Source of the DNA: a plasmid
Strand: one strand, 5' to 3'
Sequence record: NZ_CP015284.1
DNA length: 64,000 bases
Positions within the stretch are counted from its first letter, which is position 1, and each line of letters starts with the position of its first letter. Under the pieces are notes generated by a model. That model worked only from the letters and a program-made list of their open reading frames with translations. It was not told where the DNA came from and did no database searches. Both the position numbers and the translations under genes were made by a program. This document shows positions 10,261 through 10,493 of the stretch, piece after piece.

Positions 10261-10493
10261 GCTTTAGTCCCACGTCAATTAGAACAGTAACAAAACTTTG
10301 TAACTGGCGAGGTCCTATTTGCAACATTTTAGTGCCATATCAAATAGAACGGTAACAAAACTTCTAGGCAGCAATCATAGATATAATGTAAGTTTTAGTT
10401 CCATGTCAAATAGAACAGTAACAAAACCTTGTACTATAAAGGTTAAACTTCCTCTAAGTTTTAGTCCCATGTCAATTAGAACAGTAACAAAAC
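10261..10493. CRISPR. CRISPR-like mini-array: 4 repeats of 36 bp, 3 spacers of 29-30 bp. The repeat is of type II (GTTTTAG...CAAAAC) style and degenerate.
   Basis: Repeats at 10261, 10326, 10392 and 10458 (period 65-66 bp): gctttagtcccacgtcaattagaacagtaacaaaac / attttagtgccatatcaaatagaacggtaacaaaac / gttttagttccatgtcaaatagaacagtaacaaaac / gttttagtcccatgtcaattagaacagtaacaaaac. The spacers are unrelated to one another. Confidence 0.65.

Follow-up and report, generated by a model that had tools for sequence, protein, structure and literature searches.

A short CRISPR array on a Streptococcus salivarius megaplasmid of rep_cluster_199 (sequence record NZ_CP015284.1) raises the question of which protein its guides serve, as no cas gene lies within the 64,000 nucleotides of plasmid DNA that were analyzed (hereafter the window). 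The array occupies positions 10261 to 10493 on the minus strand, next to a gene encoding a 430-aa TnpB/Cas12-like protein. A preliminary description of the locus had proposed an orphan type II-A mini-array whose CRISPR RNAs (crRNAs) might be used by a host Cas9, and had mentioned the adjacent TnpB-like protein as a secondary idea. Here, about 100 homolog loci were compared, and the results led us to consider it quite probable that the array serves as guide library to a compact TnpB-derived system on plasmids (type V-like, or TranC-like), in which the effector has lost its nuclease activity and the host supplies type II-A adaptation.

The array and the gene beside it

Four repeats of 36 nt each (plus-strand coordinates 10261–10296, 10326–10361, 10392–10427, and 10458–10493) were found with start-to-start distances of 65, 66, and 66 nt. 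They enclose spacers of 29, 30, and 30 nt, all unique, and differ from one another at two to seven positions; the coordinates and counts given earlier were thus confirmed. The repeat consensus of that first reading has three copies within three mismatches in the window, against none in 100 dinucleotide-preserving shuffles of it. Equal-length direct repeats with unique spacers of similar size, occurring above chance, mark the locus as a genuine CRISPR array on a mobile element, and its 36/30 geometry is that of type II-A arrays. The array went unreported by Tandem Repeats Finder, its spacers being too dissimilar, and no Rfam family matched anywhere in the window at gathering thresholds. Within the 64-kb window the repeat unit is confined to 10261–10493; copies dispersed elsewhere in the manner of an iteron or operator, which the preliminary description had named as a sign against a CRISPR array, were not encountered. 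Searches with PADLOC and Pfam profiles detected no Cas1, Cas2, Cas9, or Csn2 among the 47 window open reading frames (ORFs) of at least 90 aa, in agreement with the earlier statement that cas1, cas2, and cas9 are absent, and none of cas9, cas1, cas2, and csn2 was called in the related loci either.

On the minus strand, the gene, a promoter, a leader of about 100 nt, the four repeats, and an intrinsic terminator follow one another. The ORF of 430 aa, which starts with GTG, runs from 11946 to 10654. Directly after its stop codon, a promoter scan predicted a promoter for the guide-RNA unit (10603–10630, minus strand), consisting of a −35 element TTGCCT (10630–10625), a 16-nt spacer, and an extended −10 element TGTTATAAT (10611–10603), which matches the consensus at 10 of 12 positions and carries the TG in addition. 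In other subfamilies the scaffold is likewise preceded by a promoter (TTGACA-17-TATAAT or TATACT). The leader (10494–10601) is followed by repeat R1 (10493–10458), spacer S1 (10457–10428, the anchor spacer discussed below), R2 (10427–10392), S2 (10391–10362), R3 (10361–10326), S3 (10325–10297), and the degenerate terminal repeat R4 (10296–10261). The unit ends at a terminator revealed by a terminator scan, GCACCTTTTAGGTGT followed by a T run (10222–10244, minus strand), and comparable terminators lie behind the arrays of the homolog loci L178, L183, and L009.

The preliminary description had read the repeat in the GTTTTAG...CAAAAC direction and had placed the array, in terms of transcription, behind the structured leader of a leftward operon. 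Neither point was borne out. The minus strand was taken as the sense strand because the promoter and terminator, the degeneracy of the far-end repeat, the gain of spacers at the gene-proximal end, and the leader-end ...GAG/GTTTT junction (the slash marks the start of the first repeat) are all found there; in the sense of the gene, the window repeat reads GTTTTGTTACTGTTCTAATTGACATGGGACTAAAAC. The array has a promoter of its own, and the terminator at 10244–10222 separates it from the promoter of the leftward operon. Identity to type II-A repeats was rejected as a criterion of orientation, since the values for the two strands (21.6 vs. 20.5 of 36 positions) were undecisive.

The two closest sequenced plasmids carry the same module, but with only two repeats and one spacer, and NZ_CP018188 (strain ICDC2) and pSsal-NU10 are about 95% identical to the window across the array region. 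At this position, both the gene and the repeats are missing from other megaplasmids of the same replicon type; a 433-aa gene at the equivalent position of pSAL813 was considered as a homolog and rejected as unrelated. Across the homolog loci, arrays of 36-nt repeats and 30-nt spacers stand beside the TnpB-like gene, always on its strand, in protein subfamilies ranging from 99% down to 40% identity, and the repeats diverge in step with the protein (gene-sense repeats: GTTTTGGAACTGTTCTATCTGTACTGGTAACAAAAC in L213, GTTTAAGAATCATCCTGTTTAACATGGTTGCAAAAC in L177, and GTTTTGGTACCTACTTGTTTGTACAGTTAGTGAAAC in L008). This physical and evolutionary coupling to the gene and to a co-varying leader scaffold is at odds with the orphan status first assigned to the array, and it is the secondary idea, service to the TnpB-like protein, that the linkage and the covariation of scaffold and repeat support.

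The 430-aa protein gave no match of its own in Pfam, NCBIfam, and PDB profile searches. It matches the relatives P0089 (E 3e-8) and P0090, which in turn match the NCBIfam family guided_TnpB (RNA-guided endonuclease TnpB family) at E 6e-22 and 3e-18, respectively, and in tblastn it matches annotated TnpB-family genes on Bacillus and Clostridium plasmids. An AlphaFold2 model with a predicted local distance difference test score (pLDDT) of 83 was compared with the PDB by Foldseek. The top 25 structures were all Cas12f, Cas12m, TnpB (ISDra2/ISFba1), Cas12p, dCas12f, Cas12k, or Cas-lambda, 23 of them at probability 1.00, with E values down to 1.7e-9. As modeled, the protein has the TnpB/Cas12 fold with its WED-REC-RuvC architecture. 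In alignments, the RuvC-I D corresponds to S/L and the RuvC-II E to Y/H/V, and the RuvC-III/zinc-finger segment is gone through C-terminal truncation; judged from these alignments, the protein lacks the intact RuvC D-E-D triad of TnpB/Cas12 nucleases. The relatives P0089 and P0108 retain all three catalytic residues. Every relative has an intact gene, which is under purifying selection (ratio of nonsynonymous to synonymous substitution rates, dN/dS, 0.07–0.19), and its product is therefore regarded as a maintained, nuclease-dead protein.

An exhaustive profile search placed the protein in a small clade of about five 50%-identity clusters, which branches from a large set of 470–530-aa TnpB-like proteins. 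One 90%-identity cluster comprises 1,523 member sequences, and human oral and gut metagenomes commonly contain the gene. P0092 (515 aa; L220 1074–2621), the nearest among the longer relatives, keeps the RuvC-I D and the RuvC-II E and reads RR at the RuvC-III position. A promoter and a structured leader are present at its locus, as is a 36/30 array (GTTTTAGTGGTATATATTTGTACAGGTGCTGAAAC) at L220 2640–2960, with a second leader-like copy at the contig end. P0092 may represent a nuclease-competent or half-decayed ancestor-like form.

The leader RNA, the two-part repeat, and spacer acquisition

The leaders of the family have a common core (CTAAC..AMGGYAAGAAGG..GGG) and a consensus structure of 18 base pairs, 12 of which show changes on both sides. 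Pairing is kept in 96% of the cells, compared with 80% in shuffles (none of 500 reaching 96%) and 27–52% when the partners are slid. A covariance model (R1) built from 13 leaders has a single match in the window, at 10491–10601 on the minus strand (84.9 bits, E 1.6e-15). Its 40 matches overall are all in the sense of the gene and include many in loci outside the building set, and no match was obtained in megaplasmids without the TnpB-like gene.

Two segments of this scaffold are complementary to the repeat. The loop of helix 1 contains an anti-repeat or pseudoknot segment (anti-repeat 2), UUUAG (10583–10587, minus strand), which pairs with CUAAA at repeat nt 30–34, and the 3′ end of the scaffold consists of anti-repeat 1, CCAUGUC (10494–10500, minus strand), which pairs with GACAUGG at repeat nt 21–27. 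The loop contact occurs in the family as UUUAG/CUAAA (the window), UUUGC/GCAAA, UUUAC/GUAAA, UUUGU/ACAAA, and UUCAC/GUGAA, and the 3′-end contact as CCAUGUC/GACAUGG, UCGUGUU/AACACGG, UCAUGUU/AACAUGG, and CAGUACA/UGUACUG. The contacts are short (5 and 7 bp) and emerged only from the comparative analysis. At the loop, 65 of 65 cells are paired across 13 subfamily representatives, and at the 3′ end 62 of 70 across 10 representatives; 0 and 12 of 20,000 permutations, respectively, reach these values, counts that overstate independence because the representatives are phylogenetically related. The pairing predicted for the loop held in the subfamilies examined afterwards.

Counted from the spacer, the loop contact covers positions −7 to −3, and it connects them with the 5′ part of the scaffold. 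The same pseudoknot geometry is found in the ISDra2 TnpB omegaRNA and is conserved in Cas12 guide RNAs (PMC10097598). The covariation and this geometry therefore indicate that the leader behaves as the half of a split omegaRNA that resembles a trans-activating CRISPR RNA (tracrRNA). The 3′ half of the repeat would then be the crRNA handle, with the spacer 3′ of it, an assignment supported by the covariation. So arranged, the predicted RNA has what characterizes TnpB/Cas12 guide RNAs, namely a guide at the 3′ end and a pseudoknot in which the nucleotides immediately preceding the guide pair with the 5′ part of the scaffold.

Within the family, there is a continuum from scaffolds with a half repeat and a guide (L201, L205–L208) to scaffolds with a full array (the window, L213, L008). 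The scaffold of L201 is fused to a half repeat and a spacer, L205–L208 and L015 are single-guide forms with one scaffold and one guide, and L178, L180, and L183 have mini-arrays of 3′ half repeats only (...ACACGnnGCAAAAC units). In relatives without spacer turnover, the 3′ half repeat alone survives. Kept even in decayed arrays and single-guide relatives, the 3′ half would thus be the part that serves the TnpB-like effector as its handle. In L015 (2849–3454), and also in L016, a gene of the AcrIIA6 anti-CRISPR family (PF28149) lies directly upstream of the TnpB-like homolog, which is 58% identical and in L015 accompanied by a scaffold and a single guide, with no array. Such neighbors hint that TnpB-like modules sit in anti-defence or counter-defence neighborhoods.

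The other half of the repeat resembles a type II-A integration site. The gene-proximal junctions of the relatives read ...GTCGAG/GTTTTG, ...CCTACGAG/GTTTTGG, ...TTGTGAG/GTTTTGG, and ...GCACGAG/GTTTA. Genuine streptococcal type II-A arrays, which have a degenerate repeat at the far end, read ...TCTACGAG/GTTTTAGAGC or ...ATTTGAG/GTTTTTGTAC, and the junctions ...CCTACGAG/GTTTTGG and ...GTCGAG/GTTTTG of the relatives equal those of such arrays. ATTTGAG and CTRCGAG have been described as type II-A leader-end motifs, with a GAG/GTTT junction (PMC5382924), and integration by the type II-A Cas1-Cas2 needs about 10 bp of leader and elements at both ends of the repeat (PMC4330368, PMC6895254). The parts of the repeat that are conserved in the TnpB-like-linked arrays, nt 1–5 and 31–36, are the parts that this integration needs, and type II-A systems are present in S. 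salivarius strains (PMC8841824). The window has the 36/30 geometry; its own junction (...CCATGTC/GTTTTG) lacks the leader-end GAG of most relatives. All five GAG-less loci, the window and its four closest relatives, contain the same three spacers and form a single close lineage.

The likeness of the repeat to type II-A repeats, on which the preliminary description had relied, stood at the level of the class and proved only approximate in detail. The genome collection was scanned with a permissive two-repeat pattern (GTTTTNNNAC..AAAC), and the matches listed were mostly canonical type II arrays; these loci were reused as the reference set for the junction motifs and for the spacer control described below. 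Among the 120 arrays listed, the best identity to the window repeat was 28/36, the streptococcal II-A repeat reached 24/36, various type II repeats were 61–78% identical, and no array with the window repeat adjoined cas9. The first 24 nt of the repeat agree with two streptococcal II-A repeat types at 13–14 of 24 positions, as counted by eye. Around four arrays, about 3 kb was scanned for ungapped complementarity, and no type II tracrRNA or anti-repeat stood out above the level of shuffled repeats. Given this low identity and the lack of a nearby type II tracrRNA, use of the crRNAs by a host Cas9, as first envisaged, is unlikely.

Turnover of the spacers was observed among the relatives. In near-identical window-type plasmids, the anchor spacer TTAGAGGAAGGTTAACCTTTAAAGTACAAG (window 10428–10457) stands on the trailer side of nearly all arrays, and ten different unique new spacers occupy the gene-proximal end. 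The array of L168 is that of L146 plus one newer spacer, and in longer arrays the repeats near the leader are identical to one another and those at the far end are degenerate. These relatives therefore exhibit the polarized spacer turnover and the degenerate trailer repeat of CRISPR arrays in general. No spacer turnover was seen in the window lineage itself, and the window array is probably a frozen version with three fixed guides. Arrays belonging to three protein subfamilies of only about 50% identity have a guide AAAACACACGCT(G/T)CTAA in common (L014 5553–5582, L201 ~1610–1633, and L209 ~2147–2165), which in L209 is joined to the scaffold directly; conserved anchor guides of this kind could be ancestral regulatory guides. 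In L216 (5070–5165), the same spacer occurs twice in tandem at the leader end (AGGTCAGAAAACGGATCAATGAAACCTAGT), and its relative L215 has one copy, which indicates duplication of a unit by recombination besides true acquisition.

Proposed mechanism, targets, and rival explanations

We propose that the predicted promoter just downstream of the 430-aa gene drives a single minus-strand transcript, comprising the leader, the four repeats with their three spacers, and the terminator, which would be processed into guides. The leader would serve as scaffold, UUUAG and CCAUGUC pairing with nt 30–34 and 21–27 of each repeat, and this pairing would rebuild the guide-pseudoknot-stem architecture of the TnpB omegaRNA, with the spacer 3′ of the handle, as the covariation suggests. 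The 430-aa protein would bind the guide RNA to form a ribonucleoprotein, be led to complementary DNA, and bind there without cutting, by analogy with TldR, Cas12m, Cas12k, and dCas12f. Once bound, it may silence the transcription or replication of its target, as judged from the same proteins. The 5′ half of the repeat, the ...CGAG/GTTTT junction, the AAAAC end, and the 36/30 geometry appear to mimic the streptococcal type II-A leader-repeat unit, and this mimicry would allow host Cas1-Cas2-Csn2(-Cas9), the presumed integrase, to insert spacers in trans. The 5′ half and the junction would thus be an adaptation module served by host type II-A machinery, and it is probably for spacer acquisition, not interference, that the plasmid draws on the host. 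A more specific form of this proposal, which we put forward tentatively and rate as somewhat short of an even chance, is that the repeat is a chimera of a type V/TnpB handle (3′ half) and a type II-A integration site (5′ half and junction), that host machinery writes the guides of an effector acting in the manner of CRISPR interference (CRISPRi), and that the family is a living series of the origin of an array on a TnpB guide RNA.

Several observations weigh against the guide-library reading. None of the 55 distinct spacers, searched in two sets of 20 and then 36 spacers, matched INPHARED phages or PLSDB plasmids beyond the arrays themselves. The spacers of the window, which the preliminary description had proposed to compare with phage and plasmid databases, were among those without a match in either collection. 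Seven spacers searched against IMG/VR gave no match. All spacers were also searched against the window and all homolog loci, short seeds included, and matched the arrays themselves only; in the window, no match to the 12–16-nt spacer seeds was found. When genuine II-A arrays of oral streptococci were treated alike, at least 10 of their 56 spacers matched known phages. The negative result is therefore informative, and indicates that the TnpB-like-linked arrays take their spacers from outside the usual phage pool; candidate targets are unsequenced plasmids, other extrachromosomal elements, and the host chromosome. The window spacers differ from those of the relatives at a roughly neutral rate, and an array with such spacers and a GAG-less junction may be decaying rather than in use. 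Selection of prespacers by the 3′ protospacer adjacent motif of Cas9, if it takes place, raises the question of how a TnpB-like effector, which normally needs a 5′ transposon-associated motif, would be served. On the side of the RNA, no position could be assigned to the second anti-repeat contact in the L008, L012, and L217 subfamilies, the relatedness of the representatives bears on the permutation counts, and several homolog loci have no scaffold or array within the DNA compared. Finally, the functional steps proposed above are all drawn from sequence.

The features that first suggested an orphan type II-A mini-array, in which host Cas9 and tracrRNA would use plasmid crRNAs to cleave rival phages and plasmids and the TnpB-like gene would be an unrelated neighbor, are real: the 36/30 geometry, the GTTTT...AAAAC repeat ends, the II-A leader-end motif in the relatives, the resemblance to various type II repeats among the arrays listed, and the absence of cas genes from the window. 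The AcrIIA6-family gene beside one homolog likewise shows an interplay with host Cas9. However, the 3′ half of the repeat co-varies with the adjacent scaffold RNA and not with any Cas9 system, and it is this half, the part that a Cas9 crRNA would discard, that decayed arrays and single-guide relatives retain. The 5′ 24 nt, which would have to pair with the tracrRNA, agree poorly with streptococcal II-A repeats in the count by eye given above, the matches listed include no cas9-adjoining array with the window repeat, and the array always accompanies the TnpB-like gene and the scaffold. With the contrast between 0/55 and at least 10/56 spacers matching phages added to these, we regard this explanation as very unlikely. 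Hardly credible, in our view, are non-CRISPR repeats such as iterons or partition sites, or an RNA anti-CRISPR decoy that titrates host Cas9 or tracrRNA, although the array is short and degenerate, lies on a cas-less plasmid, and has anti-defence neighbors in one relative. The Rep3 initiator gene (35608–37071) is 25 kb away and the repeat unit occurs nowhere else in the window, and a repeat identical to streptococcal II-A repeats at no more than 24 of 36 positions is too unlike them for a mimic. The iteron, partition-site, and RNA anti-CRISPR readings were rejected on the turnover of spacers, which are unique, uniform in length, and replaced in a polarized manner among relatives, and on the covariation of the repeats with a cis-encoded scaffold.

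Regulation in the manner of TldR overlaps with the guide-library reading and differs from it in biological role only. Conserved anchor guides would take the nuclease-dead protein to one fixed promoter, of the host or of a plasmid, where it would repress a specific gene, and the additional spacers would be by-products of occasional integration with no immune role. The decayed RuvC site and the C-terminal truncation, the single-guide relatives L205–L208 and L015, the conservation of anchors across plasmids (and of AAAACACACGCT.. across subfamilies of about 50% identity), and the lack of phage or plasmid protospacers in INPHARED and PLSDB are all in line with it. On the other hand, neither the anchor guide nor its 12–16-nt seed has a target in the 64-kb window, none was found in the sequenced megaplasmids, and the anchor has diverged between lineages about as fast as synonymous sites. 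Moreover, ten recently gained spacers and an adaptation-type junction kept across subfamilies suggest that acquisition is selected for. A purely regulatory role of fixed guides is thus unlikely, and a guide library renewed through host type II-A adaptation remains the explanation that we favor.

The megaplasmid setting and comparison with known systems

The non-coding block of about 540–640 nt on the minus strand at 9622–10257, upstream of a small-ORF/ssb/DUF3799/ERF operon, is the structured leader named in the preliminary description and is independent of the array. It has a promoter-like site (TTGATA-17-TG-TATACT, 10192–10164) and no Rfam match, and it is 87–95% identical in all rep_cluster_199 S. 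salivarius megaplasmids, including those free of the TnpB-like module. The ssb/ERF operon begins with two small ORFs of 122 and 106 aa (8916–9284 and 9297–9617, minus strand), tandem paralogs that have the motif SSTYRAARKQQ...WATLVLSGEV...SWSND in common and belong to no Pfam family. Other cargo of the window includes a BspA-type leucine-rich-repeat surface protein of 2834 aa (24210–32714, minus strand), an SNF2 helicase of 1838 aa with ZorD/DrmD-like defence-profile matches (47432–52948, plus strand), an AbiD/Abi_2 abortive-infection protein (55454–56548, minus strand), and a class III/IV lanthipeptide-synthetase-like protein (RamC_N, kinase, and LanC-like; 59901–62465, plus strand).

Among the papers accessible to the literature search, none was found to describe this streptococcal system. 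Among known systems, the streptococcal type II-A arrays (S. thermophilus CRISPR1 and CRISPR3 types) have the 36-nt repeats, 30-nt spacers, and GTTTT...AAAAC ends of the family studied here, and, like the relatives of the window, (CTA)CGAG before the first repeat, spacer gain on the leader side, and a degenerate terminal repeat. Unlike them, the present family has no nearby cas9, cas1, cas2, csn2, or type II tracrRNA, and its spacers match no known streptococcal phage; the interior of its repeat is different, with about 60% identity over the whole repeat, and co-varies with a scaffold of TnpB type, and its leader is a conserved structured RNA. Type IV CRISPR-Cas systems, which are plasmid-borne and have no nuclease or adaptation module, offer a functional parallel. 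They are thought to rely on the Cas1-Cas2 of a host system of another type with similar repeats and leaders, and to act in conflicts between mobile elements. Their class 1 multi-subunit effector differs from the effector proposed here, and the protein and RNA architectures are unrelated. If our reading is true, cross-type piggybacking would have a clear candidate in the present system, a type V-like effector relying on type II-A adaptation by means of a repeat with one handle half and one integration half, and S. salivarius megaplasmids may use this system in mobile-element conflicts or in host regulation within a major commensal.

Cas12m (V-M), Cas12k (V-K), and the array-linked dCas12f (PMC13472631) are likewise type V-like, array-programmed, and bind DNA without cutting, as the 430-aa protein is expected to do; several are found on mobile elements, and Cas12m and dCas12f are among the best structural matches of the protein model. 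In contrast to these effectors, the 430-aa protein has no similarity to them at the sequence level, is much smaller and more TnpB-like, and has no transposase or sigma-factor partners, and its array mimics type II-A. Together with its scaffold of about 100 nt, it would make a natural CRISPRi module of very small size.

The published TldR clades (fliC-, csrA-, and oppF-associated) have one fixed guide and no CRISPR arrays (bioRxiv 10.1101/2023.11.30.569447, 10.64898/2026.09.22.753285). TldR proteins and the 430-aa protein have in common the descent from TnpB, a decayed RuvC site, the C-terminal truncation, and a scaffold of about 100 nt beside the gene, and by analogy both would bind DNA without cleavage. 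Judged from its sequence, the 430-aa protein has the inactivated and truncated RuvC domain, maintained by selection, that distinguishes TldR, and L205–L208 and L015 have the single scaffold-plus-guide as well, although the searches found no target for their guides. The window differs from TldR in its split guide and three-spacer array, as do many members of the family in their multi-spacer arrays with spacer turnover; no single guide matches the promoter of an associated gene in the window, where the 12–16-nt seeds have no match, and the protein has no sequence match to known families in Pfam, NCBIfam, and the PDB profile search. If our reading is true, nuclease-dead binders of the TldR kind would extend from fixed single guides to an updatable guide library.

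Along with TldR, the closest resemblance is to TranC, a group of transposon-CRISPR intermediates between TnpB and Cas12 that are said to be active nucleases (cited in bioRxiv 10.64898/2026.03.27.714800). According to that account, TranC systems have a compact TnpB-like effector, a short array of ~36-nt repeats, and no adaptation genes of their own, and their guide is split into a crRNA and a tracrRNA-like scaffold derived from the omegaRNA or right-element RNA (reRNA), the repeat corresponding to the 3′ end of the scaffold. The window presents the same combination of a TnpB-like protein, a CRISPR array, and a putative tracrRNA from a split reRNA. It differs from TranC, to which it is likened by description only, in an effector without RuvC catalytic residues or C-terminal domain, in the type II-A adaptation signatures of the repeat and the leader junction, and in its streptococcal megaplasmid setting, as far as that account describes TranC. 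Forms in which the scaffold is fused to a half repeat and a guide, as found here among the relatives, add to the likeness to TranC; if our reading is true, this family contains intermediates between an omegaRNA and a CRISPR array, and the origin of type V arrays would be testable within one lineage.

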